A stretch of 64,000 nucleotides of DNA from Dehalococcoidia bacterium. GTDB lineage: Bacteria; Chloroflexota; Dehalococcoidia; Lucifugimonadales; UBA2985. A program made the position numbers and the translations under genes. The stretch lies in assembly GCA_965261605.1 (NCBI GenBank), contig OZ253466.1, positions 2,401,210-2,465,209 of the forward strand, given 5' to 3'. The notes under the pieces are model-generated. The model was not told the origin of the DNA, did not search any database, and saw nothing but the letters and a program-made list of their open reading frames with translations. How positions within the stretch are numbered: position 1 is the first letter of the stretch; each line of letters starts with the position of its first letter. Shown here one piece after another: positions 20,276-52,876 of the stretch.

Positions 20276-21604
20276 CTATCCCAGGTCCGACATTATCATG
20301 TCGGCTACCTGCTTGCCCATGCGCACGCTGTAGTTGGTGCCCCGGTCCTCCGGGTACACCTGGGTGGTGTTCGCCAGGTACAGGTCCCTGATGGGCGTGC
20401 GGTGGTCGGGTATCTGCTGGGAGTAGTTGGTCCCGATTATTGGCTGGGCCGCCGCCACCTTGTGATAGTGCCATTCCTCAATCCAGGAGGGGTCGAAGCG
20501 GGGGTTTATCTTCTTCAGGTGCGGTGTGTACTCGTCAAGCAGCTCCTGCTCAGACATGTGGAACAGCGGGCTGTCCTCCCCCAGGTAGTTGGAGATGTAC
20601 AGGATGTGCTTGCCCCCGTAGAGGGATGGGTCGACGAAGTTGGTCTGCTCTATGAGGCCCACAAATGGGATTGAGCGGTCGGCTATGTTCAGCCAGTAGA
20701 TGTGCGAAAGCGGCTCCTTGAGAACCAGGATAACCAGCACCGCCGACAGGTATGTGACGTTCTGTAGCTTTTCCAGGTAGTCCTGCGGCAGCGACGGCAC
20801 CAGCCTTGGAAAGACGTAGGACGGGGTTGTGGCCAGCACGGCGTCGAATCGACGGACGTCAGCGCCGCCGTCGGCGTTCGGGATCTCCAGGCCTACGGCC
20901 CGGCCGTCCTCCACGGCGATGGACCTGACAGGTGTGGAGAGGTTCACTTCGCTGCCCTGCTCCCTGATGCGTTCCGCCAGCACCTCGAATATCTCCGCAA
21001 AGCTGCCCATCGGATAACCAAGACGCTCCCTCTGCATTCCCTTCAGCCCCTTGCCGCGTGAGGCGAAGCGGGTCTGTATCTTGCCCCAGAACCAGGGCAT
21101 CCCCACCTTGTCGAAGTGCGCCCCGAACTTGCCCCTCAGCAGCGGGCCCCACACCACGTCATAGACGCCCTTGCCGGCGTACTTGCGGATCCAATCCGAA
21201 GCCACAAAAGGCTCCAGTTTCCGCCAGTCCTTATACCTGCGCAGGTACAGAGTGACCAGCCCCAGCCTGAATCGGTCCAACAGGCTCAGGGGCGTGAAGC
21301 GCAGGAGGTCGCCCGGAGTCACGAAGTTGTAGATCTTGTCGCCGTAGAAGATACCCACCGTGGACTCTATCCAGGCCATCTTGTGGCCCAGGCCAATCTC
21401 GTGGACCAGATCAACTATGTCCGTGTCGCTTGTGAAGAGGTGGTGGTATCCCCTCTCCAGCCGGCCGCCTCCCACGTCGAACGTAGAAGCCTGCCCGCCC
21501 AGGAAGGGCGCGCCCTCGTAAACCGACGCCTGGTGCCCGGCCTTGCCCAGGGCATAGGCGGCCGCCAGTCCGGCCGCGCCCGCCCCTATTATGCCAACTC
21601 TCAT
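20276..21604 (-). CDS. FAD/NAD(P)-dependent oxidoreductase (amine-oxidase / phytoene-desaturase-like fold)
   Basis: It has the N-terminal dinucleotide-binding motif MRVGIIGAGAAGLAAAYALGKAGHQASVYEGAPFLGGQA. 442 aa. Confidence 0.85.
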   Translation of the reverse strand: MRVGIIGAGAAGLAAAYALGKAGHQASVYEGAPFLGGQASTFDVGGGRLERGYHHLFTSDTDIVDLVHEIGLGHKMAWIESTVGIFYGDKIYNFVTPGDLLRFTPLSLLDRFRLGLVTLYLRRYKDWRKLEPFVASDWIRKYAGKGVYDVVWGPLLRGKFGAHFDKVGMPWFWGKIQTRFASRGKGLKGMQRERLGYPMGSFAEIFEVLAERIREQGSEVNLSTPVRSIAVEDGRAVGLEIPNADGGADVRRFDAVLATTPSYVFPRLVPSLPQDYLEKLQNVTYLSAVLVILVLKEPLSHIYWLNIADRSIPFVGLIEQTNFVDPSLYGGKHILYISNYLGEDSPLFHMSEQELLDEYTPHLKKINPRFDPSWIEEWHYHKVAAAQPIIGTNYSQQIPDHRTPIRDLYLANTTQVYPEDRGTNYSVRMGKQVADMIMSDLG

Positions 21605-22764
21605 CGGGAATCCTCCGTTTCCGGTCTCGCTCCCGTAGTTGGATACGGCAACGGGGATGTCTGCATTCGGCTCTCTCGCGTTAGCTGGCCAAAGGATACC
21701 TTCTCAGCCCAGAGGAATACAAAGCCCAGCAATGTCACGGGTATGAGCAGCGCCGCATGCACCACGATGGTGTACGCGCCCGCCGCTGACGCCTCCGCTC
21801 CCAGCAGCGTGAGGGTCGTGGCCGCCGCCACCTCGAAGGCTCCGACGCCTCCTCCGGCCGCCGGCACCGACGTAGCCAGGTTGGAGACGGCGGTGACCAG
21901 CAGTATGACGCCCGCCATCTCGGCCAGGCCAAAGGACTTGTCCAGGTTGAAGGAGAAGGCGACTATGTAGTACATCAGCGCCTCCATCAGCCACACCGGC
22001 AGGGAGAGCAGGAACACCACCGCAAGGCGTCTGGGGTCCTTCAGCGACGCGAGCCCGTCGATGAACACGTTGATCAGCCCTCTCACCCGGTCCCTGACCC
22101 GGGCTGGGAGGATACCCGTCGTACGGTCCAGCAGGGTCTCGAACCAGGGAGGCGAGGACGCTGCGGCTATCATGAAGAGGAGCACCCCGACAAACGGCAT
22201 CGACATCGCCAGTGCCAGCAACACCCAGGGGACTCCCGCCTTGTCCGCTAGCCCCTGCAGCAGTCCTACTATCGGCAGGAACAGGCCGACGACCGCGGCG
22301 AAGAAAAGGAGCGTGAGGCCGTCGAACACCCGCTCCACGGCTATGGTGGCAAGCGCAGCGACCTTGCTGACATTCTCCCGCTCCCCCACGTAGTAGGCCC
22401 TCACCACCTCACCCAGGCGCACGGGGAGAATGTTGTTGGCCATATAGCCGACCACCACCACGGGGTAAAGGCGCCGGACGCTCAGGCCCTTCACCGGCGC
22501 AAGAAGGTACTGCCACCGGAAGGTTCGGAAGAAGACCGAACCGAAGTAGACCAGAATGGCCGGTACAAGCGCAAAGTAGTTGGCCTCTCCCATCTTCTCC
22601 CACGTCTCGCCGATGTCCAGGCGGGACAGGAAGATGCCCAGGAAGAGTGCGCTTATCCCTATGGCAAGCCAGAAGCGGTAGGACTTGTGCAAACGCGAGG
22701 CTCCAAGCTCAAGAGGTTTGGTTACAATTGAACCAGTATACCTACAATGTACGAACGAGGACAA
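21601..22764 (-). CDS. UPF0104 / lysyl-phosphatidylglycerol-synthase-TM-region-like (flippase-like) membrane protein
   Basis: 387-aa polytopic ORF. It overlaps the downstream oxidoreductase by 4 nt. The start is uncertain. Confidence 0.7.
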   Translation of the reverse strand: MSSFVHCRYTGSIVTKPLELGASRLHKSYRFWLAIGISALFLGIFLSRLDIGETWEKMGEANYFALVPAILVYFGSVFFRTFRWQYLLAPVKGLSVRRLYPVVVVGYMANNILPVRLGEVVRAYYVGERENVSKVAALATIAVERVFDGLTLLFFAAVVGLFLPIVGLLQGLADKAGVPWVLLALAMSMPFVGVLLFMIAAASSPPWFETLLDRTTGILPARVRDRVRGLINVFIDGLASLKDPRRLAVVFLLSLPVWLMEALMYYIVAFSFNLDKSFGLAEMAGVILLVTAVSNLATSVPAAGGGVGAFEVAAATTLTLLGAEASAAGAYTIVVHAALLIPVTLLGFVFLWAEKVSFGQLTRESRMQTSPLPYPTTGARPETEDSR

Positions 22765-22797
22765 TACGGGAGGCCTCGCCGGTATTCCCAGGGTCTG

Positions 22798-22826
22798 TTG
22801 ATATTGGCGAACAGCGCCGCTATGAT
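22798..22826 (+). promoter_or_regulatory. Sigma-70-like promoter (TTGATA-17 nt-TATGAT) for LRR gene 1
   Basis: TTGATA at 22798-22803 and TATGAT at 22821-22826. Downstream are a small palindrome attggc-N6-gccaat (22841-22858) and an RBS GGGAGG (22864-22869). Confidence 0.45.
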
Positions 22827-22878
22827 ACCCGAATGAATCTATTGGCTATGGCGCCAATAAAAACGGGAGGTAAAGAAA

Positions 22879-24147
22879 ATGATCCGTACACACACGACAA
22901 GATACGTGACCCTGCTGAGCGTTGTCCTTGCGCTGGCCCTTACGGCAGCGCTCGCGGCCTGCGGCGGCGATGAGCCGGACGCCGACGGAGAGCGGACCGC
23001 GACGCCCCGGACGGAGGCCACGGAGACCGGGGACGGGGACGCGGCCACCGCTGAGCCGCGATCTACGGCGGCGACAGCGCCGCTGCTCACCATTGGGCGG
23101 ACCTCCGCCGAAACGGACCGGGAAGCGCTGGTTGCCCTCTACAACGCAACGGACGGTGAGAACTGGTATAGTAGCGACAACTGGCTGAGCGCCTTGCCCC
23201 TCGGCGAATGGGAGGACGTAACCACCAACGCCGACGGGCGCGTTACAGAGCTGAACATTAACAACAACAGCCTGCTCGGGGAGATACCGCCGGAGTTGGG
23301 CAGCCTCTCCAACCTAGTAGAGTTGCACCTCAGCTACAACGACTTGAGCGGGGAGATACCGGCGGAGCTGGGCAGCCTCTCCAACCTGACATATCTGGGC
23401 CTCAACAGCAACGACTTGAGCGGGGAGATACCGGCGGAGCTGGGCAGCCTCTCCAACCTGACATATCTGGACCTCGACAACAACGACTTGAGCGGGGAGA
23501 TACCGCCGGAGCTGGGCAGCCTCTCCAAGCTGACATATCTGGGCCTCAACAGCAACTATTTGAGCGGGGAGATACTGCCGGAGCTGGGCAGCCTCTCCAA
23601 CCTTGAATTGCTGCTCCTCGACGGCAACGAGTTGAGCGGGGAGATACCGCCGGAGCTGGGCAGCCTCTCCAACCTAGTAGAGTTGCTCCTCGACGGCAAC
23701 GAGTTGAGCGGGGAGATACCGCCGGAGCTGGGCAGCCTCTCCAACCTAGTAGAGTTGCGCCTCGACTACAACGAGTTGAGCGGGGAGATACCGGCGGAGT
23801 TGGGCGGCCTCTCCAACCTTGAATTGCTGCTCCTCGACGGCAACGACTTGAGCGGGGAGATACCGCCGGAGCTGGGCAGCCTCTCCAACCTGACATTTCT
23901 GGGCCTCGGCAGCAACGACTTGAGCGGGGAGATACCGGCGGAGCTGGGCAGCCTCTCCAACCTTGAATTGCTGCTCCTCGACTACAACGAGTTGAGCGGG
24001 GAGATACCGGCGGAGTTGGGCGGCCTCTCCAACCTTGAATTGCTGCACCTCGACTACAACGAGTTGAGCGGGTGCGCTCCGGCCAGTTTGAACCGCAACA
24101 GCTTAAGCGTTCTCCTGCCGGATACCGTGGACGGCTATTGCCCGTAG
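22879..24147 (+). CDS. Lipoprotein with about 12 plant-specific-type 24-residue leucine-rich repeats (paralog 1 of 4)
   Basis: It has a lipobox LAAC|GGDEPDADGER, a Thr/Ala/Glu/Pro linker and an N-cap DREALVALYNATDGENW...PLGEWEDVTTNADGRVTEL. These are followed by 11 SGEIPxELGxLSNL cores and a C-cap LSGCAPASL...VDGYCP. Confidence 0.9.
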   Translation: MIRTHTTRYVTLLSVVLALALTAALAACGGDEPDADGERTATPRTEATETGDGDAATAEPRSTAATAPLLTIGRTSAETDREALVALYNATDGENWYSSDNWLSALPLGEWEDVTTNADGRVTELNINNNSLLGEIPPELGSLSNLVELHLSYNDLSGEIPAELGSLSNLTYLGLNSNDLSGEIPAELGSLSNLTYLDLDNNDLSGEIPPELGSLSKLTYLGLNSNYLSGEILPELGSLSNLELLLLDGNELSGEIPPELGSLSNLVELLLDGNELSGEIPPELGSLSNLVELRLDYNELSGEIPAELGGLSNLELLLLDGNDLSGEIPPELGSLSNLTFLGLGSNDLSGEIPAELGSLSNLELLLLDYNELSGEIPAELGGLSNLELLHLDYNELSGCAPASLNRNSLSVLLPDTVDGYCP

Positions 24148-24182
24148 AGGTCGGCGCTAAGTAAAGATAGGAGGTCACGATA

Positions 24183-25352
24183 ATGACGAGTGCAGGAACC
24201 ACGAGATGGCTTGCCTTGCTGGGCATTGTCCTTGCGCTGGCGCTGCCCGCAGTCCTCATAGCCTGCGGCGGCGATGCGCCGGACGCCGACGGAGAGCGGA
24301 CCGTGATGCCCCGGACAGAGGCTGCGTCCACGCCCGCGACGGAAGCGGCAGCTTCCACCGCCATGCCGGGGGACGCGCCCACCGCCACCGCTGCGCCGCG
24401 GCCGACGGCTACCAAAGCGCCGCTGCTCACCATTGGGCGGACCTCCGGCTCCGCCAAAACGGACCGGGAGGCGCTGGTTGCCCTCTACAACGCAACGGCC
24501 GGTGAGAAATGGAAAGGAAACGAAAACTGGCTGAGTGACGCGCCCCTGGGCGAATGGGAGGACGTAACCACCAACGCCGACGGGCGCGTTACAGAGCTGC
24601 TCATATGGGGCAACCTGTTGAGCGGGGAGATACCGCCGGAACTGGGCAGCCTCGCCAACCTGAAAACGCTGTTCCTCGAATCCAACGAGTTGAGCGGGGA
24701 GATACCGCCGGAGCTGGGCAACCTCGCCAACCTGACATTTCTGGGCCTCGGCGGGAACCAGTTGAGCGGGGAGATTCCGCCGGAGCTGGGCAGCCTCGCC
24801 AACCTGCAAGAGCTGGACCTCAGGGTCAACCTGTTGAGCGGGGAGATTCCGCCGGAGTTGGGCAGCCTCGCCAACCTGGAATTGCTGTACCTCTCCGACA
24901 ACGAGTTGAGTGGAGAGATACCGCCGGAGCTGGGCAACCTCGCCAACCTGCAAGGGCTGCAGCTCTACAACAACGATTTGAGTGGGGAGATACCGCCGGA
25001 GCTTGGCAGCCTCGCCAACCTGCAACAGTTGACGCTCAACCACAACGATTTGAGTGGGGAGATACCGCCGGAGCTTGGCAGCCTCTCCAACCTGGAATGG
25101 CTGGTCCTCAGCGACAACGAGTTGAGTGGAGAGATACCGCCGGAGCTTGGTAGCCTCGCCAACCTGCTAGGGCTGTACCTCTCCGACAATCAGTTGAGCG
25201 GGGAGATTCCGCCGGAGCTGGGCAGCATCTCCAACCTGGAAACGCTGTACCTCAGCCAAAACCAGTTGAGCGGATGCGCTCCGGCTAGTTTGAAACGTGA
25301 CGGGCTTATATACCTTCGCCTGCCGGATTCCGTGGACGGCTTTTGCCCGTAG
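24183..25352 (+). CDS. LRR lipoprotein paralog 2 (about 10 repeats)
   Basis: The RBS is AGATAGGAGGTC and the lipobox LIAC|GGDAPDADGER. It carries 9 SGEIPPELG[SN]L[AS]NL cores and a C-cap LSGCAPASL...VDGFCP. Confidence 0.9.
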   Translation: MTSAGTTRWLALLGIVLALALPAVLIACGGDAPDADGERTVMPRTEAASTPATEAAASTAMPGDAPTATAAPRPTATKAPLLTIGRTSGSAKTDREALVALYNATAGEKWKGNENWLSDAPLGEWEDVTTNADGRVTELLIWGNLLSGEIPPELGSLANLKTLFLESNELSGEIPPELGNLANLTFLGLGGNQLSGEIPPELGSLANLQELDLRVNLLSGEIPPELGSLANLELLYLSDNELSGEIPPELGNLANLQGLQLYNNDLSGEIPPELGSLANLQQLTLNHNDLSGEIPPELGSLSNLEWLVLSDNELSGEIPPELGSLANLLGLYLSDNQLSGEIPPELGSISNLETLYLSQNQLSGCAPASLKRDGLIYLRLPDSVDGFCP

Positions 25353-25384
25353 CGGCCGGCGCTAAGCAGAGATAGGAGGTCCCG

Positions 25385-26698
25385 ATGATGGCGAGTACAG
25401 GACCGGCGAGATGGCTTACCTTGCTGGGCATTGCCCTAGCCCTGGCGCTGTCGGTAGTCCTCATGGCCTGCGGCGGCGATGAGCCGGACGCCGACGGAGA
25501 GCGGGCAACGGCGACGCCCCGGACGGAGGCCGCGTCCACGCCCGCGACGGAGGCGGCAGCTTCCACCCCCATGCCGGGGGACGCGCCCACGGCCACCGCT
25601 GCGCCGCGACCGACGGCTACCAAAGCGCCACTGCTCACCATTGGGCCGACCTCGGTCGAAACGGACTGGGAGGCGCTGGTTGCCCTCTTCGTCGCCACCG
25701 ACAGTGCGAACTGGAAACGCAATACAAACTGGCTGAGTGACGCGCCCCTGGGCGAATGGTACGGCGTCGACACTGACGTCAACGGTCGAGTCACAGAACT
25801 GGACCTCGACGACAACCGGTTTCGCGGGGAGATACCGGCGGAGCTGGGCAACCTTTCCAACTTGGAAGCGCTGAACCTCAGCGGCAACGGTTTGAGCGGG
25901 GAGATACCGGCGGAGCTGGGCAGCCTCGCCAACCTGGAATGGCTGGACTTCCAAGCCAATCAGTTGAGCGGGGAGATACCGGCGGAGCTGGGCAGCCTCG
26001 CCAACCTGATAGTGCTGTATCTCAACCGCAATCAGTTGAGCGGGGAGATACCGCCGGAGCTGGGCAGTCTCGCCAACCTGAAACGGCTGGACCTCAGCGG
26101 CAACGAGTTGAGCGGGGAGATACCGCCGGAGCTGGGCAGCCTCTCCAACCTGCACACGCTGGACTTCCAAGCCAATCAGTTGAGCGGGGAACTGCCGCCG
26201 GAGCTGGCCAGCCTCGCCAACCTGGAACGGCTGAACCTCGGCTACAACGAGTTGAGCGGGGAGATACTGGCGGAGCTGGGCAGTCTTTCCAACCTGACAA
26301 ATCTGTACCTCAGCGGCAACGAGTTGAGCGGGGAGATACCGCCGGAGCTGGGCAGCCTCTCCAACCTGAAAAAGCTGGAACTCGACAGAAACCAGTTGAG
26401 CGGGGAGATACCGCCGGAGCTGGGCAGCCTCTCCAACCTGAAAAAGCTGGAACTCGACAGAAACCAGTTGAGCGGGGAGATACCGCCGGAGCTGGGCAGC
26501 CTCTCCAACCTGGAAGCGCTGGGCCTCAGCTACAACGAGTTGAGCGGGGAGCTGCCGCCGGAGCTGGGCAGCCTCTTCAACCTGAAAAAGCTGTCCCTCG
26601 GCGGGAACGAGTTGAGCGGGTGCGTGCCACGCAGCCTGGAAGTCCGGGTGATGAGCAGATCTTATTTTTCTGACCTTGGCGACCTGCCCTTCTGCTGA
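25385..26698 (+). CDS. LRR lipoprotein paralog 3 (about 12 repeats)
   Basis: The RBS is AGATAGGAGGTC and the lipobox LMAC|GGDEPDADGER. It carries 11 repeat cores, including a perfect 72-bp tandem duplication, and a C-cap LSGCVPRSLE...FSDLGDLPFC. Confidence 0.9.
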   Translation: MMASTGPARWLTLLGIALALALSVVLMACGGDEPDADGERATATPRTEAASTPATEAAASTPMPGDAPTATAAPRPTATKAPLLTIGPTSVETDWEALVALFVATDSANWKRNTNWLSDAPLGEWYGVDTDVNGRVTELDLDDNRFRGEIPAELGNLSNLEALNLSGNGLSGEIPAELGSLANLEWLDFQANQLSGEIPAELGSLANLIVLYLNRNQLSGEIPPELGSLANLKRLDLSGNELSGEIPPELGSLSNLHTLDFQANQLSGELPPELASLANLERLNLGYNELSGEILAELGSLSNLTNLYLSGNELSGEIPPELGSLSNLKKLELDRNQLSGEIPPELGSLSNLKKLELDRNQLSGEIPPELGSLSNLEALGLSYNELSGELPPELGSLFNLKKLSLGGNELSGCVPRSLEVRVMSRSYFSDLGDLPFC

Positions 26699-26794
26699 AG
26701 CCACGCGCCCTCAGCTGGCGGAAACGGCGCCAGGGGCGCGCCTTCTTCCCCGGACGCTCTGCGCGAAGCAAAGAAAAGATAGGAGGTCACGACA

Positions 26795-27742
26795 ATGACG
26801 AGTGCAGGAACGACAAGATGGCTTGCCCTGCTGGGCATTGTCCTTGCGCTGGCGCTGCCCGCAGTCCTCATAGCCTGCGGCGGCGATGCGCCGGACGCCG
26901 ACGGAGAGCGGGCAACGGCGACGCCCCGGACGGAGGCCGCGTCCACGCCCGCGACGGAGGCGGCAGCTTCCACCCCCATGCCGGGGGACGCGCCCACGGC
27001 CACCGCTGCGCCGCGGCCGACGGCTACCAAAGCGCCGCTGCTCACCATTGGGCGGACCTCCGGCTCCGCCAAAACGGACCGGGAGGCGCTGGTTGCCCTC
27101 TACATCGCCACCGACGGTCCGAACTGGAATAGCTATACAAACTGGCTGAGTGACGCGCCCCTGGGCGAATGGTACGGCGTCACCACCAACGACGAGGGCA
27201 GAGTCACAAAGCTAGACCTCAGCTACACCCAGTTGAGCGGGGAGATACCGCCGGAGCTGGGCAGCCTCGCCAACCTGGAAACGCTGAACCTCATCTCCAA
27301 CGAGTTGAGCGGGGAGATACCGGCGGAGCTGGGCAGCCTCGCCAACCTGGAAATGCTGGAACTCCGCAACAACGAGTTGAGCGGGGAGATACCGCCGGAG
27401 CTGGGCAGCCTCGCCAACCTGGAACAGCTGTACCTCCATGAGAACCAGTTGAGCGGGGAGATACCGCCGGAGCTGGGCCGCCTCGCCAACCTGAAATCGC
27501 TGTGGCTTTCCGAAAACCAGTTGAGCGGGGAGATACCGCCGGAGCTGGGCCGCCTCGCCAACCTGACACTGCTGCGGCTCGACGACAATGAGTTGAGCGG
27601 GGAGATACCGCCGGAGCTGGGCAGCCTCGCCAACCTGACAAATCTGGACCTCCAAGACAATCAGTTGAGCGGGTGCGTGCCAAGCAGCCTGGAAGACCAG
27701 TTGAGCAACTTTTCTGACCTTGGCGGCCTGCCCTTCTGCTGA
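26795..27742 (+). CDS. LRR lipoprotein paralog 4 (about 7 repeats)
   Basis: The RBS is AGATAGGAGGTC. The N-terminal ~100 aa are nearly identical to paralog 2. It carries 6 repeat cores and a C-cap LSGCVPSSLE...FSDLGGLPFC. Confidence 0.9.
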   Translation: MTSAGTTRWLALLGIVLALALPAVLIACGGDAPDADGERATATPRTEAASTPATEAAASTPMPGDAPTATAAPRPTATKAPLLTIGRTSGSAKTDREALVALYIATDGPNWNSYTNWLSDAPLGEWYGVTTNDEGRVTKLDLSYTQLSGEIPPELGSLANLETLNLISNELSGEIPAELGSLANLEMLELRNNELSGEIPPELGSLANLEQLYLHENQLSGEIPPELGRLANLKSLWLSENQLSGEIPPELGRLANLTLLRLDDNELSGEIPPELGSLANLTNLDLQDNQLSGCVPSSLEDQLSNFSDLGGLPFC

Positions 27743-27904
27743 AGCCACGCGCCCTCAGCCGGGGACGGACAGCATATCGCCCGGAATGTCTCGCAAGGTA
27801 TCCTCGGCAAGGATGGGGCCGGTCAACTTCGCGCCGCCATGCCGGCCCTCCCTCGCTACGGAGGCCTTTGGATGGCCCCTGGATGGGGTACGCTCCCTCT
27901 CTGA

Positions 27905-28267
27905 CTCTCCCCCTTCAGGGGAAGAGAATGCCCCTTCCCCCGCAGGCGTGGGTGTGCTGTGTAGTGGACTCCGCTCATATGGTTCGACAAGCTCACCCCC
28001 GTATCAAGTACAGGGCAGGCTATGAGCGGGTCAACGAAACCATGCCTGCGAAAGCAGGTATCCAGAGGGGGTGTGTGGAGGCGTGGACTCTAGCCTGCGG
28101 AGACCTCTGCGCAACCCGCGCGGCAGCTCCGTTGAATGTCATTCTGATCCCTTCGGCTACGCTCAGGATAAACTACGCGAAGAATCCAAAGCGTTCCATC
28201 CAAGGCAATGCAGCTTGCAGGCAGAGGCTTTAGATTCCTCACTTCGCTGCGCTACGTTCGGAATGAC
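27905..28267. repeat. Mosaic of intergenic repeat units (families D, C, B and A)
   Basis: Family D is at 27905-27926 (ctctcccccttcaggggaagag) and family C at 27991-28022 (gctcacccccgtatcaagtacagggcaggct). Family B is at 28045-28058 (cctgcgaaagcagg). Family A has a forward unit at 28138-28187 and a reverse unit at 28233-28267. Confidence 0.7.
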
Positions 28268-28343
28268 AGTAGGCGCGCCTCTTCTGGAAGATACGCCGGA
28301 GTTATGCAAAGGTATGCGGAAGCAGGATTCTGGTGGGGAGACA

Positions 28344-30578
28344 TCAAGGCTCTGAAGGCTCCTCCACGAAGTACGCGATGGCCCTGTGATTGAGATAATC
28401 TATGTCCGTCTTGCGGTAGACGTAGTAGTCCAGGAAACCGCGCCACTTGTCCCGGCTGACCAGGCTGGTGAAGGCCTCGCCAAGGCCCAGGCACGGCTCG
28501 TCCCGCCTGTCGCTGCACGGCTTGTACCCCTCCGGAGGCCACCAGAGGTACAGAAACTCCTTGCCGGGGCCGTAGTTTCCGACGTATCTGGCCATCCTGT
28601 CCTTGTTGCCGTCGCTGATGAGCAGCGCCGAACCCTCCGGCTCCTGGGTCGCATTGCCCGCATCGAAATAGTCGATGGTCTCGAAGTCGCGTATATACCA
28701 GATGAGGCCCCAGTAGATGTCCTTGTCCACGGTAAGGCGCAGTTGGTCTCCCTCGCCCGTACTCTGGGCTAGTTCGCGTATATCCGCCATTATGCCGGGA
28801 ACCTCCCGCGAGTCCTGGGCGTAGACCAGCATCTCCTCCGGAACGTCGCCGTTGATATAGCTGGCGTGCCAGCCCGTCCTGACGGCCAACACGAGGAGAA
28901 CCAGGGCGAAGGACAGGGCCACAATCCTCAGCCCGTTGCCCGAGCCTGAGCGCAGGACCAGGTGTACTCCCAGTCCCACTATCACGAGGACGACTACAAA
29001 CAGGGCCCAGAACTCGACGAAGTTGAAGAACCTGCCCGGCTCTATGTCGAAGAGGATGAGCCTCACCAGCAGGTAGAGGAGAAGCGACGTTAAGGGGATG
29101 AGGTACAGCCCTCCGGCGCTCAGGACGCGCTGCCACCGGACGGCCGCTATCATATCCCCGATGAGCTTCCCGGAAAGAACTATCATGGGCAGGGCTATGC
29201 TCGCCAACAGCCAGGGCATCTTCTCCCCTGCCCACGTGTAGAGCAGGACGGTCGCGACCACCCAGTAGGACAGGAACCTGGTGAAGCTGTTGCCTCGAAG
29301 GGTGTAGTACACCACTCCCGCTACGGAGAAGATCAGTGGCAGCGTCTCGTACAGAGGCGCGACGACGAAGTAGTAGTACCAGGGCTGGTCTCCCCTGTTA
29401 ACGTCGTGCTGCACTATCCAGTACCCCAGGGACTGCCACATTCCGCTGGCAACACCCAGTGCGTTGGTGAAGAAGGTGGTGTACAGGAGCAGCCACACGC
29501 TGTAGAAGACGGCGGCGCAGCGCAGCCAGACGCCCCTGTTCCACGAGACTCCGACCAGCGTCGAGAACCACAGCGCCGCGAACACCACCAGCGCGGCTAT
29601 CACCATGCCCTTGGTTATGTCCACGTCCTGGATTGTCCAGAGCACGTCTCCGGCGGGTGCGCCTACCAGACCGCCGCTGCCGGCCAGAACGACCCCGTAG
29701 CTCTTCAGAAAGTTCTGGAACAGGCTGACCAGGGCTGCGGCCTGCGGAAGCAGCAGGGTTGACAGCAGGACCAGGAACACCCCTGGTCGCGAGAACGCCG
29801 ATAGCCGGGCCGGTCGATTGGCGCGCCCGTAGCCGTATCCAATGCCCGGTGTGTAGCGGTACTCGTCGTTCGGCTGGTCTGCGCCGACTCCGGTAGCGGC
29901 GGGCCGACGCAGCAGCCAGGGAACCCAGTCCTTCGCTGCCACTATCAGCAGGTAGCTTCCCAGAATGCCTACGACGAAGAAGGTCGTCTCCTTGGTGGCG
30001 AATGCCATTGCGAGCGTCAGGGCGCTCAGGTACAGGTAGCGAGGCTTGCCTTCGACCATATAGCGCCACATCAGGATGATCAGGCTCAGTGTCCATACGG
30101 CCATGAAGATGTCGTTGCGGGCGTAGCGGCTGTAGAAGAGCATCATTGGCGAGAAGGCCAGAAGGACGGCCGTTACAAGCGCCCCTGCCCTGCCCAGATG
30201 CGAGCGGAAGAAGTAAGGGAGGCCTACCAGGACTGTCCCGAATATTGCCGCGGGCAGCCGCGCGGTGAACTCGCTGTCTCCGAAGAGGAAGAACATGGCG
30301 GCAATGCCGTGGTACTGGAATGGGCCATGTGAAAGGGGGTTGTGCTGGTAGCCGAGGCCCTCGGCCAGGCGGAAGCTGTAGTACAGGTGCAGACTTTCGT
30401 CGTAACCTATGGCCCTTGCGCCAAGGTCCCAGAAACGCATGGACGCGGCCACCAGTATCAACAGCGCGTACGCTGCCACCTCCCAGTGGGAAGCCAGCAG
30501 GGAGAGCAGGCTCCCCTTTTGCTCGTCCACAGAGGCGACGCTGGACTCCTTCATAACGGCTCTGTCACTCTCGTACAC
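28344..30578 (-). CDS. Large GT-C-fold (ArnT/PMT-like) polytopic membrane protein, TIGR03663/Agl23-like
   Basis: 744-aa ORF. The N-terminal pattern RFWDLGARAIGYDESLHLYYSF places an acidic DE pair in the first loop, as in GT-C glycosyltransferases. It has many TM helices and a soluble C-terminal domain. It overlaps the end of the upstream YYY gene. Confidence 0.75.
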   Translation of the reverse strand: MYESDRAVMKESSVASVDEQKGSLLSLLASHWEVAAYALLILVAASMRFWDLGARAIGYDESLHLYYSFRLAEGLGYQHNPLSHGPFQYHGIAAMFFLFGDSEFTARLPAAIFGTVLVGLPYFFRSHLGRAGALVTAVLLAFSPMMLFYSRYARNDIFMAVWTLSLIILMWRYMVEGKPRYLYLSALTLAMAFATKETTFFVVGILGSYLLIVAAKDWVPWLLRRPAATGVGADQPNDEYRYTPGIGYGYGRANRPARLSAFSRPGVFLVLLSTLLLPQAAALVSLFQNFLKSYGVVLAGSGGLVGAPAGDVLWTIQDVDITKGMVIAALVVFAALWFSTLVGVSWNRGVWLRCAAVFYSVWLLLYTTFFTNALGVASGMWQSLGYWIVQHDVNRGDQPWYYYFVVAPLYETLPLIFSVAGVVYYTLRGNSFTRFLSYWVVATVLLYTWAGEKMPWLLASIALPMIVLSGKLIGDMIAAVRWQRVLSAGGLYLIPLTSLLLYLLVRLILFDIEPGRFFNFVEFWALFVVVLVIVGLGVHLVLRSGSGNGLRIVALSFALVLLVLAVRTGWHASYINGDVPEEMLVYAQDSREVPGIMADIRELAQSTGEGDQLRLTVDKDIYWGLIWYIRDFETIDYFDAGNATQEPEGSALLISDGNKDRMARYVGNYGPGKEFLYLWWPPEGYKPCSDRRDEPCLGLGEAFTSLVSRDKWRGFLDYYVYRKTDIDYLNHRAIAYFVEEPSEP

Positions 30579-32994
30579 GGTATATTGTCACGTCCTCGCT
30601 CTCGAACACCGATTCACCGATTCGCGGGAACTTGGCGAGTCCGCCCAGGCCATAGGAGACCCTCTCGCGTGGGCCTACCACCACGTACTGAACGTTGTAC
30701 TCCTTCAGGAGGCGCATTGCCTCCGAAGCATCGGGTGTAGTGTAGATGGCTCTGACATCCTCTTCCCTGCCCTCGAAGGCCTCGCGGGAGCCGCGCCACT
30801 GGTGCTCGTGCCAGGGCCAGCCGAGAACGGTCGGCATCCCGGTGCTGGAGGAAACACGGCCGTAGGCGCTCCAGCTGTCTCCAACCGCTTCCACTATCCC
30901 TTCGCCCTCCTTCCCGTTCTCCCGGAGCCACTGGATGGCGGCGTACTCCCCGGGGCTGGAGCGGGCGATGTAGGCCAGGCCGTCCAGGGTGTTCTCACCG
31001 CCGTTCCCGCCCTTGGTGAGGGCCGCCTCCACCGGATAGTAAAGCGATGCCAGAAAGAGACCTCCTGCCAGGACCCACCATCCCCTCAAGGCCCATTTGT
31101 AGACGCTCCCGGATGGGGGTTTTGTCGAATTCAAGAAGTATAGGCCAAAGGCGGAAGCTATAGCAAGGAGAGTCCAAGCCTGGTAATACAGCTTGAAGAT
31201 GGTGTTCATCCTGTTGTGGAAGAGGTCGTCCACTCGAAGGAACTCCGGTCCCAGCGCCAGGAGCAGCGCCAGCGACACTATGGATAGTACGAAGACCATT
31301 ACGGGAGACACACCGGTCTCGGCGTACCGGATAAGGCTGTACAGGCTCACGAAGAGAATCAGGGCCAGTGGAGCGGTGTTCAGAAACCGCTCGCCCACCA
31401 CTACTATGGGGTCGGTTGACCACGTCAGGGTGCTCCAGGCCAGCTGCCAGGCGGCCCATACGAACAGCGGGGCAAACACTACGCCAATTGCAACGGAAGC
31501 CCTTGGCCAGAACACCCTGGAGCGGGCCAGATTGGCAAGGCTTGAGCGCAGGCCGTACGGAGCGGCGTTGTCGGCGTCGGCGCTGGGATACCCGCCGGAC
31601 GATTCGCCCGCGCCCAGCGACAGTGCTCGCGGTATCTGCCTGAGCAGGAAGGGCAGCAGCGCCACAAGGAACAGGCCCCAAATGATGAGGAAGTGCACCG
31701 GCCGCGTGCCTACCTCGCCCACAGGCAGGATGCCAGTTGCCTGGCTGTCCAGGCTGACATAGAAGGGCAGGTACAAGAGTATCGCCAGCGACAGGGTCGC
31801 TGCGACCGGCAGCCATGACTGGAGCAGCGCTCTCGTCCACACACCTTCCTCCTGGCGAACGGCCTTAAATGCAAGCAATGCCGCCCAGAGCGCGGCAAAT
31901 GTGACTATGTCCCAGGCGTTGACAAAGGCGAGTCCGCCCAGCAGCAGCGCAGCCACGACCACAGTACCCGGTTGCTCCAAAATCCACCGCGCGCTCAGAC
32001 GGGCCGGCGACATGAAGGCGCTTAGGCCAAAGGCGAGGAAGAGCAGGACAAAGGGGATGGACATCGCGTGGGGATGCAGGTCGCCCAGGAGGAAGCTGAA
32101 GAACGGGAACTCGGTTATGGTGTAGTCCAAGCTGCCTCCCTGCTCGTTGAGGCTGTCTATGACCCGTGTGCTTCGCCACCACCACAGGTGCTCGGTTGGT
32201 CGCCAGGAAGCCGCCTCAAGGGCGCCGAAGTTCTTGATTCCCAACCACTCCCAGAACGACGCCGGCGCCCACTGACGCAGCCTTACGAACTCCAGTGCGC
32301 CCTGCAGGTTGCTCACCGCTATCAGCAACACCGGGGCCACAAGAGCGAACCCCATCCCTTTACGAAACGATGCTCCGTGGGCGCGCGTCAGGTTGTACAC
32401 CAGGCCATAGGCAGCGGATCCGGCCATCGCCGGTATGAGGGCAATGGCAAGGTTGTAGGAAATGCGGGAGGGGATGAGGGTAAGCTCCGTCAGGTTGCCC
32501 ATCATCAGGTAGCCGAAATAGTAGTATGGCAGGTCGTGGCCTCTCAGCCACGGATCCTCCGGCGGAAAGAAGCCGGCCAGGATGGAGGCGTTGAGGAATG
32601 CGAAGTCCATCGGCTTTTCGGTGGAATCGATGGAGGGGTCGTAGACTCGGTAGATGACCCATGCCCCGTACAGGACGAGGAACACCACTTCCCCCAGCAT
32701 GAGCGCGCGCCTCTCCCGGCGGACGAAATCCAACATCTCCGCGCGCCGTCGCATTGCGAACCACCCGGAGACGACTGCGAACAGGCCCAAGGCGGCCCAA
32801 AGGGTGAGGGGCGTGGTGGGCACAATGTGAAGCGAGCCTAGCATCCACAGGGGCCAGGACAGCAGGATGAGACCCAGGGGTTTGGCTACGGAATATCCCC
32901 TGTCCTTGAGGCCGCTAAAGAGGATAAATGCCAAAGGGAAGGCTATGAGGCCGATAAGCTCTGCGGCCAGGAGCCAGGTTAAGGCGTTTGCCAC
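30565..32994 (-). CDS. DUF2298 / 'Chlor_Arch_YYY' large polytopic membrane protein
   Basis: 809-aa ORF with the signature HDLPYYYFGYLMMGNL visible, more than 15 hydrophobic helices and a soluble C-terminal domain. Confidence 0.78.
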   Translation of the reverse strand: MANALTWLLAAELIGLIAFPLAFILFSGLKDRGYSVAKPLGLILLSWPLWMLGSLHIVPTTPLTLWAALGLFAVVSGWFAMRRRAEMLDFVRRERRALMLGEVVFLVLYGAWVIYRVYDPSIDSTEKPMDFAFLNASILAGFFPPEDPWLRGHDLPYYYFGYLMMGNLTELTLIPSRISYNLAIALIPAMAGSAAYGLVYNLTRAHGASFRKGMGFALVAPVLLIAVSNLQGALEFVRLRQWAPASFWEWLGIKNFGALEAASWRPTEHLWWWRSTRVIDSLNEQGGSLDYTITEFPFFSFLLGDLHPHAMSIPFVLLFLAFGLSAFMSPARLSARWILEQPGTVVVAALLLGGLAFVNAWDIVTFAALWAALLAFKAVRQEEGVWTRALLQSWLPVAATLSLAILLYLPFYVSLDSQATGILPVGEVGTRPVHFLIIWGLFLVALLPFLLRQIPRALSLGAGESSGGYPSADADNAAPYGLRSSLANLARSRVFWPRASVAIGVVFAPLFVWAAWQLAWSTLTWSTDPIVVVGERFLNTAPLALILFVSLYSLIRYAETGVSPVMVFVLSIVSLALLLALGPEFLRVDDLFHNRMNTIFKLYYQAWTLLAIASAFGLYFLNSTKPPSGSVYKWALRGWWVLAGGLFLASLYYPVEAALTKGGNGGENTLDGLAYIARSSPGEYAAIQWLRENGKEGEGIVEAVGDSWSAYGRVSSSTGMPTVLGWPWHEHQWRGSREAFEGREEDVRAIYTTPDASEAMRLLKEYNVQYVVVGPRERVSYGLGGLAKFPRIGESVFESEDVTIYRVRE

Positions 32995-34149: not shown

Positions 34150-34256
34150 GTCATTCCGAGCGCAGCGAGGAATCCAGAGGTCTTCACAATAGATACGGTA
34201 GCATTGCAGACAAAGGCTTTAGATTCCTCACTCCGCTGCGCTGCGTTCGGAATGAC
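34150..34256. repeat. Family-A inverted repeat pair
   Basis: The forward unit is gtcattccgagcgcagcgaggaatcc (34150-34175). The reverse unit is gattcctcactccgctgcgctgcgttcggaatgac (34222-34256). The latter is nearly identical over about 45 nt to 28221-28268. Confidence 0.72.
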
Positions 34257-34395
34257 AATGAGTGCGTCCTTTCTGGACATACACAGAAATTGCGCAAAAG
34301 TACCCTCGGGGGCGGCGTGGCGGTGAGTTGTTGCGCCCGCTCACATGATTCGATGTGGCTCACCACTGGCGTCCCGTGGAGTACGCGCCCCTGCC

Positions 34396-41452: not shown

Positions 41453-42382
41453 TTATGTGCTGAGGAACTTGTCTCCGTTGAAATGGATCAAGTGGTCCGG
41501 AATCTCGGCGATCCAAACCTCTGTCTCCCAGGCGATGTTGTCCACATGGCGCTTGAACTGCTTGAAGTCCGGGAAAGCGGTTACATACAGACGCTTGGTT
41601 GTGCAGTTGCTGAGCGTAGCTTCTAGCTCTTCCACTCTTTTGGGACTCACGGGGCCGTGAGAAGTGACGGCTTCTATTAGGAATAGCCAGTTTCGATCCT
41701 CATCGTAGAGCATCACATCGGGTAGCTTGTCATGCTCGGTAAATGGAACGCGAAGCTCGTCAAGCTTCTCCTGGTCTATGTGAAGAAGTTTTTGAGCGGC
41801 ATCTCCCAGATACAACAGGACTGACCCAGGAGCGAACCTACTTCCGAAGTCTGTCACCACTGCGGCCTGCAGCTTGTTGTGCCTACCTGGTGAGAGGCGG
41901 ATTTCCTCGCCAGTGGAGGTGCGGACAGGAATCTCCCTCATCTGGCGTCTCCTTCGGTATACTTCCAAGAGCGTACCTTGGCTTGAGCGGAAGGCGAGGA
42001 GAGCGGCTTCCCAGGCACTGCCTTTGTAAAAACGGATTACGTTAAGTGCTTCGTCTGTGAGGCCGTAATGAGAACGAGGGCTGTTGGTGGGTAGGTCTGG
42101 ATCGTCTGGGTTGCGGTCAGCTAATCGTGCTTGCAGGAACTGGTGAATTACCTGCCGCCGTACAGTCTCTCGCGTGTTCTCCGCGTACGCCCTGCCGTAG
42201 GTCGCACCCATGAATTGCAGAATCTGGTGAATGGTGAGAGACGGTTTCGATGGACTCCTCCAGGGATCACCCTCAGAGAGTCCCGCAAGTGCCAAAAGTG
42301 TCAGGCAGGAAATATCGTTCTGTTGGGCCGGAGGCAACCCGAATTGCTCAAGTATGTCCCGCGCTTCATCTAGCTTGCTCAT
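41453..42382 (-). CDS. Type II restriction endonuclease, BsuBI/PstI family
   Basis: ATG at 42382. The product MSKLDEARDILEQFGLPPAQQNDISCLTLLALAGL...HYGLTDEAL...WLFLIEAVTSHGPVSPKR... resembles the BsuBI/PstI endonuclease family. GC is lower than in the flanks. Confidence 0.75.
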   Translation of the reverse strand: MSKLDEARDILEQFGLPPAQQNDISCLTLLALAGLSEGDPWRSPSKPSLTIHQILQFMGATYGRAYAENTRETVRRQVIHQFLQARLADRNPDDPDLPTNSPRSHYGLTDEALNVIRFYKGSAWEAALLAFRSSQGTLLEVYRRRRQMREIPVRTSTGEEIRLSPGRHNKLQAAVVTDFGSRFAPGSVLLYLGDAAQKLLHIDQEKLDELRVPFTEHDKLPDVMLYDEDRNWLFLIEAVTSHGPVSPKRVEELEATLSNCTTKRLYVTAFPDFKQFKRHVDNIAWETEVWIAEIPDHLIHFNGDKFLST

Positions 42383-42416
42383 ATTGTAACCAACGATCGC
42401 CCATCTAAGGCTGCAA

Positions 42417-44078
42417 TCAGAGGCCAAGAATCCTGGCAGCGAGAGCATCAATCTCGGTGAGGTCAGTTCGCGGTCGGAGGCGCGCAATTAAAGCTGAGCC
42501 AATGGAACGTATTTGCTTTTCGGCTGGGAGTGGCATGATCCGCAATTCCGTAGCGCTGACTTGCGTATTACCGTTGGAAAGGCGGAAGTAACGGTCTAGG
42601 AAAACGGAATTGAGAAGGGCCGCAAGTCCGTAGGCAAGATTTTCATCTAAGGCGCTCGAAACTCCGCGGATGTAATTTAGGTGGTTCTCCAGCCCCAACA
42701 TTTGTGTATTTAGACAGTGCTGAATCAAGGGCGCGGCCACGAGTCTGCGGTTCTCTTCTTTGGCACTGAAACGGCGCAACAGGACATAGGTTTCATCTGC
42801 CACTAAGAGCTTTCTTGCTCTTGTCGTATCCTTAATCCACTGGGGCTTGTTGATGCTTATTGAGGGCCATTCGACTCTCATGGGATGTACGTGATGCATC
42901 CACAGTAATGGAACTGTAGACGGCTCTGGGGCCTGTGCCAAGAGCTGCTTGGCTCTAAATGGCACCACAGGTCCAGTGGAGATATCCAAGCCAAGAGAAT
43001 GTAGTGTGTTAGGCCAAGACCTGATTTTCTGTACCAACTCCAAGTCTCCTGCGTTAGCAGGAATGCAAAGTTCCTTATTTTCACTGTTCAAGTCCATCAC
43101 AGACTTCAACCCCACCGTGAGACTTTGTCGATGTGCGAGGTCGTGAGCGCCTTTGCTGTGGGTCACTACTACTTTACCCTCATCTGGGGCTTCGCCTTCC
43201 GCCCTTTTGCGGGCTGCTATCACAAGGTTCTCTTGTAGAACGGTCTGGTTTTTGAATACATCCTTACGGGAATCGAATAGATGAATGGCGATGGGGGCTA
43301 CGCTCTCGAAGAAAACCTCTCGGAATCTCCTGAAGTAAGGCCCTGCCGCAAAGCTTCTGGGCACGATGTAGACAAGATTACCAGACTCCGATAAGAGCTC
43401 AGCAGAAACAGCCATGAACAGGGCATAAATGTTGGGTTGACCATGCACTACGGACGCTCCAGCTATCGCCCGTGGGTCATTCTTTGCTATTTTGAAGTAT
43501 GGAGGATTTGAAATCACGAGCCCAAATTCGGGGTGGTGTTTATCGGGACTATATGCGCGAACTTTGGCCTTCGATGCGCCTTGAAGGACATCAGAATATG
43601 CTAAGACGAAGTCATCGTTCATCACGTTGAATGTCATGGTGACGCCGCTTTGAGCAAGCCATTCACGCGAGAAGGCTAAGGATATACGCGTTAGGGCGGC
43701 CAGCAAATGATCCGTCTCATAGGAATCTATGTGCAGATTTCGAACTGTCCCCCTGATTGCTGCTGCCTCGCATACCGCAGCCGATAGAACGCCGGCGCCG
43801 CTCCCCGGATCCAATACCCGCAGATACGGTTGAGAATACGCAGCGCACTCTGCCATAAACCTTGCAACTAGGGCGGGAGTCAGGTAGTGTCCGCCATTCT
43901 TCCGGTCGCCGTGTTTGACGGACGACGAGTAGGCTTCTCCAAGAGTCTCGGCGTACTCCACTGGAGTGGAGCCATCAATTGGCAGAGGAATGTTTAGCCC
44001 TGTCGGGAACGCTTCGGATGTAATGTTGGGGTCCCCCGCTAAAGAAGTCCTCTTGATCGCCTGATTAGTGGTTGCCAT
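42417..44078 (-). CDS. N6-adenine DNA methyltransferase (gamma class, Eco57I/PstI-methylase-like)
   Basis: Motif I is LRVLDPGSGAGVL and motif IV is VISNPPYFK, with GGHYLTP upstream. It sits directly upstream of the endonuclease gene. Confidence 0.85.
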   Translation of the reverse strand: MATTNQAIKRTSLAGDPNITSEAFPTGLNIPLPIDGSTPVEYAETLGEAYSSSVKHGDRKNGGHYLTPALVARFMAECAAYSQPYLRVLDPGSGAGVLSAAVCEAAAIRGTVRNLHIDSYETDHLLAALTRISLAFSREWLAQSGVTMTFNVMNDDFVLAYSDVLQGASKAKVRAYSPDKHHPEFGLVISNPPYFKIAKNDPRAIAGASVVHGQPNIYALFMAVSAELLSESGNLVYIVPRSFAAGPYFRRFREVFFESVAPIAIHLFDSRKDVFKNQTVLQENLVIAARKRAEGEAPDEGKVVVTHSKGAHDLAHRQSLTVGLKSVMDLNSENKELCIPANAGDLELVQKIRSWPNTLHSLGLDISTGPVVPFRAKQLLAQAPEPSTVPLLWMHHVHPMRVEWPSISINKPQWIKDTTRARKLLVADETYVLLRRFSAKEENRRLVAAPLIQHCLNTQMLGLENHLNYIRGVSSALDENLAYGLAALLNSVFLDRYFRLSNGNTQVSATELRIMPLPAEKQIRSIGSALIARLRPRTDLTEIDALAARILGL

Positions 44079-47334: not shown

Positions 47335-48095
47335 GGCAGATACCCTCTGGCAAAGCTCAGCAAGTCCTCAATGCTCCTCTCTCTGAACGCCGCCACGAGC
47401 TCCTCGGGCACGGCGCAGTATATCCGCTCCAAGGCGTCCGGAACGGACTCCAGGAACTCGTCCACCAACTCATTCAGCTTGTCTTCCGTCCCCTCGCCCT
47501 CCTGGCGGGCCACCCTCCGCGCCATGAATCGAAGCCTCTCCCAGGTGAACTCACCGCCCAGGGAGTTCTGGACCCATTCCCGCCATTCAACGAGGGTTTC
47601 CGCCGAGATAAAGCCTATGTCAACGTCCTTCTCGGCATCTGTCATAAAGGGCTTCAGCTCCGTCGTCCCGCCCATCGCCAGATGCTCCCTGCGATCCAGC
47701 TCCAGCTGAAGGGCGCGATCCATCAGGTTGCCGCGTAGCTTGTCTTCGAACACCTCGCGGTTGCCGAAGTACGGCCGGTACAGATTCAGTATCCACAGCT
47801 CGTCAGTGAACAGGTGACTGGCAAACCCTACAATGAACGCTTTGGTAGGCTCGTTGAGGTCAGAGGCTTGGGCCAGATTGGGGTGAGAGTGAAACAGACC
47901 CTCTATCCCATCCCCTTCCCTCTCGAAATCCAGCGGGACAAAGTGGGTGTCGTCGCGCTTTCCCCTGGTGATTATGCGTATGTCAGGGGACACGGACCCA
48001 AGGAGAAATGCGCCCATATTGTTGTTCAAAGTCGGGTGGTCCAGCCGCGAGGCGGCGTCCTTCGCCATTCCCAGGTGTGCGCTGAAGTTAGGCAT
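47331..48095 (-). CDS. Zinc-dependent phospholipase-C-fold metal hydrolase family protein embedded in the his operon
   Basis: ATG at 48095. The product is MPNFSAHLGMAKDAA...LLGSVSPDIR...DDTHF...FHSHP...FASHLFTDE... The N-terminal His, the SPD, THF and HSH motifs and the HxxxD ligand-like residues fit the Zn_dep_PLPC-like family. It starts 17 nt after the hisG stop, and its stop overlaps the hisD start. Confidence 0.68.
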   Translation of the reverse strand: MPNFSAHLGMAKDAASRLDHPTLNNNMGAFLLGSVSPDIRIITRGKRDDTHFVPLDFEREGDGIEGLFHSHPNLAQASDLNEPTKAFIVGFASHLFTDELWILNLYRPYFGNREVFEDKLRGNLMDRALQLELDRREHLAMGGTTELKPFMTDAEKDVDIGFISAETLVEWREWVQNSLGGEFTWERLRFMARRVARQEGEGTEDKLNELVDEFLESVPDALERIYCAVPEELVAAFRERSIEDLLSFARGYLP

Positions 48096-48112
48096 CGTTC
48101 TCTCTAAATCGA

Positions 48113-50312: not shown

Positions 50313-50394
50313 AACGATAGCGTACCTCTTGGATTATATGTGAAGCATTGTACAATAACACTGGGGCTACTTCAACGCGAGGCGTCCCAGTACC

Positions 50395-52029: not shown

Positions 52030-52068
52030 ACGCCCATACTCACTTCTATCGCGATCCAGGTGTGACGA

Positions 52069-52824: not shown

Positions 52825-52876
52825 TCTATCCCTTCCTTCTCTCTATCCTATGATGAGATTTCATCGCAGGGTCATA

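Follow-up and report, generated by a model that had tools for sequence, protein, structure and literature searches.

The closest described systems to the four tandem leucine-rich repeat (LRR) genes analysed here are the plant-specific (PS) LRR receptors, the plant resistance (R) genes, the variable lymphocyte receptors (VLRs) of lampreys and hagfishes, the NOD-like receptors (NLRs) of fungi, and the secreted or surface LRR proteins of Leptospira and Listeria. In plants, unequal crossing-over and a birth-and-death process shape the tandem clusters of R genes. VLRs are put together in somatic cells, from silent cassettes, by a process that resembles gene conversion and is linked to a cytidine deaminase. 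The LRR proteins of Leptospira and Listeria are of other LRR classes, whose period is shorter (22-23 residues); we know of no identity of units at the DNA level, among them, that is comparable to the one described below. In plant LRR receptor kinases, peptide ligands are bound on the concave inner surface (PMC6749341). In fungal NLRs (HNWD/NWD of Podospora), the WD40, ANK and TPR repeats show a high internal similarity and a repeat-number polymorphism between strains, are shuffled within and between family members, and are under positive selection at a few binding-surface positions per repeat; LRRs were not found among these proteins (PMC4986451). LRR eukaryotic-like proteins of sponge-associated SAR202 and Caldilineae Chloroflexi were proposed to be host-microbe mediators (PMC6306507). 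The genes considered here (P1 to P4) are paralogous LRR lipoprotein genes found by open reading frame (ORF) calls and translation at 22879-27742, on the plus strand, in a stretch of 64,000 nt of a Dehalococcoidia bacterium (contig OZ253466.1), hereafter the window; together they hold 37 repeat units. Coordinates are positions in the window, and units are numbered within each gene (P3.8: unit 8 of P3).

These genes probably encode outward-facing LRR binders in which the scaffold is under purifying selection, the concave face diversifies and the arrays are reshuffled, giving a repertoire specific to each strain. The four products would be membrane-anchored lipoproteins facing outwards, each made of a stalk and a plant-type solenoid of 24-residue LRRs. 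The arrays would be reshaped as 72-bp units are duplicated or deleted, as one unit converts another, and as entire genes recombine or are replaced; these events would keep all the synonymous sites of the unit alike, not those of the scaffold alone. Purifying selection would hold 18 structural residues per unit. At x2, x3, x5, x7, x8 and x10 of the segment LxxLxLxxNxL, replacements would occur several-fold faster than synonymous change, i.e. diversifying selection would act on a ligand-binding face. The outcome would be a binder repertoire differing from strain to strain.

Repeat unit, binding face and codon diversity

All 37 units are of 24 amino acids (72 bp) and in perfect register. Codons 1-14 form the scaffold and codons 15-24 the variable half. 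SGEIPPELGSLSNL is present in 37 of 37 units; L14, L17, L19, N22 and L24 are invariant or near-invariant. Codons 15, 16, 18, 20, 21 and 23 (the six x positions given above) are variable: mean amino-acid entropy is 2.9 bits at these six and 0.27 bits at the remaining 18. The six residues account for 73% of the amino-acid differences among the units, and positions 1-2 of their codons (12 of 72 sites) for 55% of the pairwise nucleotide differences. The pairwise distance between units is about 11 of 72 nt. The mean difference from the consensus over the 37 units is 2.1 of 42 nt in the scaffold and 7.1 of 30 nt in the variable half. With up to three mismatches, a 30-mer of the scaffold has 35 matches in the window (0 expected). 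A period of 216 bp (three units) reported by TRF was rejected: the distance from unit i to unit i+3 is not below that of other spacings.

An earlier note, made from the sequence alone, had quoted the eleven unit strings of P1 and four strings from the other paralogs, and had described the same split between scaffold and variable slots in all of them. The quoted strings are exact, and the pattern holds over the 37 units of P1 to P4. The start given there for the array (23233) is that of the cap strand before unit 1, and the P1 array begins 42 nt further on (Table). The scaffold is near-unchanged at the DNA level, as claimed (P1 scaffolds are at 0-4 nt from the consensus, and the 41-nt string given is the consensus itself), but to call it invariant was an overstatement. 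Private scaffold changes are found (P1 unit 1 starts with LGEIPP; P1.4 has SKL, P1.5 EILPE), and scaffold positions 6 (P/A), 10 (S/N/G/R) and 12 (S/A) are semi-variable.

In P1 to P4 the order of parts is: signal peptide with lipobox, T/P/A/E-rich stalk, N-cap, LRR units, C-cap. The lipobox (LAAC, LIAC or LMAC, then GG) lies within residues 25-30 in the four proteins (P1: LAAC, Cys28); it was read from the sequence by the motif [LVI][ASTVI][GAS]C, with no predictor behind the lipoprotein call. The N-cap (TDREALVALYNAT..NWLS..PLGEW..V..GRVTEL) is cysteine-free; the C-cap (LSGC[AV]P..L...C) has two cysteines. A Pfam scan of the four proteins found LRR families only (P1: LRR_1, 1e-37; LRR_8; LRR_14); LRRNT_2, the N-cap with a Cys pair, is not among the matches of P1 to P4. 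PF08263 is carried by some distant homologues. The LRRs are assigned to the plant type because of their 24-residue period, their LxxLxLxxNxL segment, and their (S/T)GxIPxxLGxLxx segment with a short convex helix.

The AlphaFold2 model of residues 75-422 of P1 is a solenoid (predicted local distance difference test 83.8, predicted template modelling score 0.83). DSSP places a strand at about unit positions 16-24 and a 5-residue helix at P-E-L-G-S in every unit of this model. Among solved structures, the closest sequence matches are ectodomains of plant receptor kinases: FLS2 (4.6e-156), GSO1, HSL1 and MIK2. The same ectodomains are the closest fold matches (MIK2, template modelling score 0.87), and the units of P1 align in register with the repeats of FLS2 and other plant LRR receptor kinases. 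LIC11098 of Leptospira is matched at 1.2e-65. The earlier note had put the variable residues on the concave sheet; both the DSSP assignment and the register with FLS2-type receptors place them on the predicted concave strand and ascending loop.

Codon choice follows position within the unit. Codon 15 ends in A (NNA) in 36 of 37 units (GAA, ACA, AAA, GTA, CAA and others); its nucleotide diversity is 0.62 and 0.53 at positions 1 and 2, and 0.05 at position 3. More generally, third positions of variable codons are conserved though positions 1-2 are near saturation, a feature that the earlier note does not mention. GGG, ATA and TTG are fixed at given unit positions, against codon bias. Codon usage was ruled out as the cause of these invariant codons, since in the other genes of the window GGG and TTG stand at 20% and 8%, and third-position A at 12.6%.

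Proportions of synonymous (pS) and nonsynonymous (pN) differences were counted by the Nei-Gojobori method over all pairs of the 37 units. pS is 0.145 in scaffold codons 1-14, 0.165 in the Leu/Asn codons conserved within the variable half and 0.19 in the variable codons; pN is 0.062, 0.012 and 0.565, respectively. Synonymous diversity is flat along the unit, and replacement change alone is concentrated. At the variable codons dN/dS is about 4.8 among the paralogous units. The earlier note had stated that no selection signal would be indicated if synonymous and nonsynonymous differences were equally concentrated; they are not, and the diversification of the binding face that it proposed is supported by the concentration of pN in the variable codons. 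It had also proposed homogenisation of the scaffold by unequal crossing-over or gene conversion. Both processes are visible in the arrays (see below); their restriction to the scaffold does not stand, pS being uniform. The N-cap, C-cap, signal peptide, stalk and 3′ flank are highly conserved at the DNA level as well. These counts fit whole units that would be young or homogenised, with structural residues under purifying selection and x positions under diversification.

Homogenisation specific to the scaffold, or a constraint on its 42 nt at the DNA or RNA level, with a 30-nt segment that merely drifts, would account for the unequal distances of the two halves from the consensus and for an exact scaffold 30-mer common to at least 75 species. 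It is nevertheless very unlikely. pS is alike in the scaffold, in the core Leu/Asn codons and in the variable codons; the interleaved CTG, CTC, AAC and TTG codons and third positions are as conserved as the scaffold; and the same codon conservation is found in the non-repeated caps. Homogenisation of the scaffold only is rejected because conversion tracts cannot keep base 3 of a codon while skipping bases 1-2. An Rfam search of 20-30 kb of the window gave zero matches, which counts against a function at the RNA level.

Family, turnover of arrays and competing readings

Exact copies of the scaffold 30-mer are found in at least 116 blocks of 8 kb, which come from at least 75 species-representative genomes (74 Dehalococcoidia, one Chloroflexota). 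The 1346 units extracted from 74 genomes have the same 72-nt consensus and the same odd codons (GGG 88%, ATA 89%, TTG 88%, codon 15 NNA 81%); consensus and odd codons recur when units carrying the search seed are dropped. Position-specific codon conservation extends to the non-repeated caps across species. The amino-acid constancy of the scaffold over at least 75 species therefore points to purifying selection across the family, not to local conversion alone. The conservation of codons between species may reflect recency, gene transfer or a constraint at the nucleotide level. More than 7400 protein homologues were found, many of them multi-module. P4 is related to P0059 (3.43-Mb contig of L001), with which it has certain cassettes in common. 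The flanks of the family blocks share almost no orthologues with the window; a search with FtsY recognised one block genome (91% amino-acid identity). Multi-kb segments 99.4-99.9% identical were seen between metagenome-assembled genomes of different species (L003/L013, L077/L117, L046/L083); they are either recent horizontal transfers or contigs binned twice.

The modes of change were examined in 44 long collinear alignments between species. In those with at least three units, mismatches per site are 4.3% in the flanks; 4.1% (positions 1-2) and 4.9% (position 3) in conserved codons; 30% (positions 1-2) and 16% (position 3) in variable codons. Of 212 aligned units, 104 have 0-1 variable codons changed and 83 have 4-6, a bimodal distribution. 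Two processes are therefore distinguished: point replacement, and replacement of whole cassettes by insertion or deletion (indel), duplication or conversion. Register shifts and duplicated cassettes are found between orthologous arrays, and cassette replacements trace to neighbouring units. P3 has orthologues about 94% identical in two other species, and their unit-by-unit orthology is marked by rare scaffold variants (SGELPPELASLANL, SGEILAELGSL, ..LFNL). In seven unit pairs of P3 and its orthologues with 0-4 differences, at least 8 of 9 differences are nonsynonymous. In the CBDHDB orthologue of P3, units 7-8 are overwritten by its own units 3-4 (gene-conversion tract); P3.8 and P3.9 are identical 72-mers (tandem duplication). 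Neighbouring units share private scaffold variants, and adjacent units are slightly closer than distant ones, which is a signature of local duplication or conversion. The identity of P1 to P4 to other genomes is mosaic (84-99.7% per 300-nt tile).

Several points weigh against outward-facing binders with a diversifying face. The ratio of pN at variable codons to pS is 3.6 over all orthologous units; once units having three or more changed variable codons are left out, i.e. once swaps are removed, it is 1.3 (p = 0.11), against 0.53 in the scaffold. These ratios suggest but do not prove that point changes between sister species are under positive selection; the rate could be near-neutral. There are hints that dS is lowered by transfer, conversion or nucleotide constraint, which would inflate dN/dS, and Nei-Gojobori counts are crude on recombining repeats. 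The odd codon choices are kept across 74 species independently of flank GC content (53-72%; correlation with unit GC, r = 0.06). Expression evidence is at the level of the family, not of this locus. Lastly, we infer surface exposure and binding function from the sequence and the model, and side-chain exposure of the six variable residues is taken from register and homology.

Neutrality of the x positions (omega about 1), combined with a synonymous divergence depressed by conversion, horizontal exchange or nucleotide selection, is a serious rival, if an unlikely one. It would explain the non-significant ratio between orthologous units after removal of swaps, the rare position-specific codons conserved in caps and units of 74 species, the lack of correlation between the GC content of units and of flanks, the mosaic identity along P1 to P4, and the multi-kb near-identical segments between species representatives. 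Conversion and transfer, however, copy whole tracts and would lower pN of the variable codons as much as pS, and among paralogous units pN at these codons is 3-4 times pS. Neutrality also sits badly with the kept third base of codon 15 beside two near-saturated bases, and with the predominance of nonsynonymous differences in the P3 unit pairs that differ little. The interleaving of third positions weakens this rival but does not eliminate it.

It is improbable that the loci form a germline-encoded, community-level combinatorial recognition repertoire whose invariant stretches (42-nt scaffold, caps, 3′ flank) are kept as homology arms. If so, variable 30-nt cassettes and entire arrays would be traded across hundreds of units and loci and between co-resident species. 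The family would then be a population-scale bacterial analogue of VLR assembly with selection on synonymous sites, and the rare position-specific codons in at least 74 species, whatever the GC content of the genome, would be explained.

Programmed diversification, either by templated mutagenesis like that of diversity-generating retroelements (DGRs) or by a somatic assembly of cassettes like that of VLRs or pilins, is highly improbable. The alternation of constant and variable parts, the many units changed at 4-6 variable codons with an unchanged scaffold, the large pool of potential donor cassettes and a reverse transcriptase (RT) of the group-II-intron type near one related cluster are compatible with it. 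No RT was found among the immediate neighbours of the cluster, nor among the genes called within about 10 kb on either side in syntenic strains; no DGR template repeat was noticed at the locus, where no separate search for one was made. Against such mechanisms, single-codon changes use all four bases, and adenines of the scaffold and of the third position of codon 15 are untouched. The 37 targets in four genes are unlike any DGR, the four ORFs are complete, a silent cassette array is absent, and the variation is seen between strains. DGR-type mutagenesis can in practice be set aside, given the absence of an RT from the neighbouring genes covered, the changes to all bases and the untouched adenines. 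Ordinary conversion or indels are retained for the cassette replacements because these trace to neighbouring units.

The uniform scaffold could also be feigned by collapsed or consensus-polished repeats, the window coming from a metagenome assembly. Scaffold k-mers are at 100-250 times the depth of the single-copy flanks in the source metagenome, and some related long-read contigs carry frameshifts. Such an artefact is hardly credible, however: all four ORFs are unbroken and keep the 72-bp register throughout, more than 75 genomes and numerous contigs show the same architecture independently, and private scaffold markers of orthologous units are reproduced across species.

The strain-variable island and its surroundings

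The preferred reading, a strain-specific repertoire of binders, also draws on the turnover of the locus as a whole. The cluster lies in an island that varies between strains (Table). In a sister species (L066, OZ244718), the flanks are syntenic and 94% identical (pS of orthologues 0.11-0.20); two LRR genes (237 and 312 aa) lie between these flanks and have zero cassettes in common with the window. Contigs of conspecific strains were recovered through exact matches to the neighbouring amine oxidase or to FtsY; flanks are about 97% identical in those recovered through the amine oxidase. At the locus these contigs have no LRR gene, a single one whose array differs (3-9 units), or one followed by insertion sequence (IS) elements. 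In three further contigs, IS elements come straight after the PMT gene and the downstream region differs. Across strains and the sister species, the repeat number at the locus is 3-11 units, or the gene is absent. In another species, a P1-like and a P3-like gene form a pair in a non-syntenic region rich in mobile elements; an ORF for an RT/maturase of the group-II-intron type and IS21-like istA/istB lie beside it (CBDHDB contig_2, 48001-64000). Transposases adjoin LRR clusters in L001, L002, L119, L122, L125 and L128.

Table. Coordinates of the LRR cluster, its flanks and related sites. Positions are those of the window unless a related locus is named.
Feature	Position	Strand	Remarks
P1, LRR lipoprotein gene	22879..24147	+	422 aa, 11 units
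P1 array, eleven 72-bp units	23275..24066	+	unit: 42-nt scaffold SGEIP[PA]ELG[SG]LSNL and 30 nt xxLxLxxNxL
P2, paralogous LRR lipoprotein	24183..25352	+	389 aa, 9 units at 24621-25268
P3, paralogous LRR lipoprotein	25385..26698	+	437 aa, 11 units at 25823-26614
P4, paralogous LRR lipoprotein	26795..27742	+	315 aa, 6 units at 27236-27667
Family-conserved 3′ flank	27743..27786	+	directly after the P4 stop codon
Strain-variable island with the LRR cluster	22783..28336	.	synteny stops at ~22782, resumes at ~28337
LPG_synthase_TM family gene, conserved left flank	21601..22764	-	Pfam, 1e-50
PMT_2/PMT glycosyltransferase-like gene, conserved right flank	28344..30578	-	Pfam, synteny
DUF2298 gene beyond PMT_2	30565..32994		Pfam, synteny
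RT/istA/istB site	L053 17-1372; L053+L020 12892-15212
Second repeat family sites	L017 1502-1953; L018 7453-7905; L031 3939-4650, 6100-7500; L093 5270-6330

The cluster is bordered by ordinary genes of the chromosome, with LPG_synthase_TM and an amine oxidase to one side and PMT_2, DUF2298 and FtsY to the other. The LPG_synthase_TM gene of the left flank is syntenic in L066, L119-L121, L123, L124, L126, L127 and L130. PMT_2, which resembles a protein O-mannosyltransferase, and DUF2298 adjoin the island wherever this side was recovered (window, sister species, seven conspecific contigs). The Thr/Pro/Ala-rich stalks might be O-glycosylated by these neighbouring enzymes. The sequences of P1, P4 and the LPG synthase, looked up as exact proteins, gave no recorded match.

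In other species' LRR loci, the 44 nt following the P4 stop codon have 84 matches downstream of the genes, many of them 100% identical; this flank might serve as a terminator, in regulation or as an arm for recombination. Further downstream, a non-coding stretch (27942-28475) has 30-50 times the flank depth in DNA contigs and a depth of 945 in one metatranscriptome run, and is partly inverted in the sister species. It has no Rfam match, and may represent a small mobile or REP-like (repetitive extragenic palindromic) element or else an RNA of high abundance. A copy of positions 28215-28314, at 80%, lies at 34204-34302. Long antisense ORFs are found on the minus strand (23546-24457, 24135-25043, 25436-26704, 27212-27748), as are off-frame ORFs on the plus strand (up to 422 aa); all these ORFs through the arrays are probably by-products of stop-free repeats and not genes. 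A second tandem-repeat coding family occurs beside LRR genes at the related loci listed last in the Table (offset between matches about 111 bp; copies 65-78% identical). The GC content is 0.50-0.52 at 42001-44000 and 50001-54000, and about 0.61 elsewhere in the window; these stretches may be foreign or island DNA.

Evidence from public reads consists of collapsed Logan contigs, interrupted at the variable segments. Short contigs of RNA runs with the label 'sponge metagenome' show matches to the scaffolds, the N-cap and the lipobox region. As judged from these matches, they support transcription at the family level in sponge-associated communities. A literature search by accession and sample name returned no habitat. 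The LRR family is probably host-associated, and selection would most likely be imposed by host factors, by phages or by other cells of a host-associated community. The genes are good candidates for strain-specific recognition of hosts, phages or other cells in uncultured symbionts, and provide a natural library of consensus LRR binders. For annotation, they flag a strain-variable island and a repeat family that confounds short-read assembly and binning.

Comparison with described systems

The PS LRR receptors (FLS2, PEPR1, MIK2, BRI1, PGIP) have the same 24-residue period and the same consensus (LxxLxLxxNxLSGxIPxxLGxLxx). The LRRs of plant R genes have hypervariable solvent-exposed residues in xxLxLxx, as at the x positions of P1 to P4. 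The earlier note had drawn an analogy with plant R proteins; it is apt; variation at x positions, a tandem cluster, and crossing-over or conversion of units are found here too. Unlike plant LRR receptors, P1 to P4 are bacterial lipoproteins devoid of kinase and transmembrane domains; their N-cap lacks the Cys pair of LRRNT_2, their convex segment is far more uniform, and their units are near-identical at the DNA level.

VLRs are similar in their capped LRR solenoid, 24-residue LRRV units, constant framework, hypervariable concave face and use of cassettes. The earlier note's analogy with VLRs is sound as to this logic, in which cassettes are shuffled and a variable concave face is set on a constant framework, but does not extend to the mechanism: P1 to P4 are complete genes in the genome, and their variation is seen between strains and species. 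LIC11098 and LIC10831 of Leptospira and the internalins of Listeria are secreted or surface LRR binders of bacteria, as is proposed for P1 to P4; their repeats are much less uniform. For the LRR proteins of sponge symbionts, only the presence of the genes was reported (PMC6306507). K-mers of the P1 to P4 family are found in sponge-labelled RNA. In the literature searched, the unit-level architecture, the codon-level pattern and the strain-variable island were not found described.

With the fungal NLR repeats of high internal conservation, the P1 to P4 family shares an evolutionary regime of similar, shuffled repeats that vary in number between strains, probably with diversifying selection on a binding surface as well. 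It differs in the fold of its repeats; the fungal proteins are cytoplasmic receptors of eukaryotes, of the STAND class (signal transduction ATPases with numerous domains), and repeat-induced point mutation is an additional source of mutation in fungi. What stands out beyond that regime is the strong conservation of synonymous sites across species. The regime itself is a known one, that of plant R genes, fungal NLRs and, in its logic, lamprey VLRs, now seen at strain resolution in a bacterial family of predicted surface proteins.

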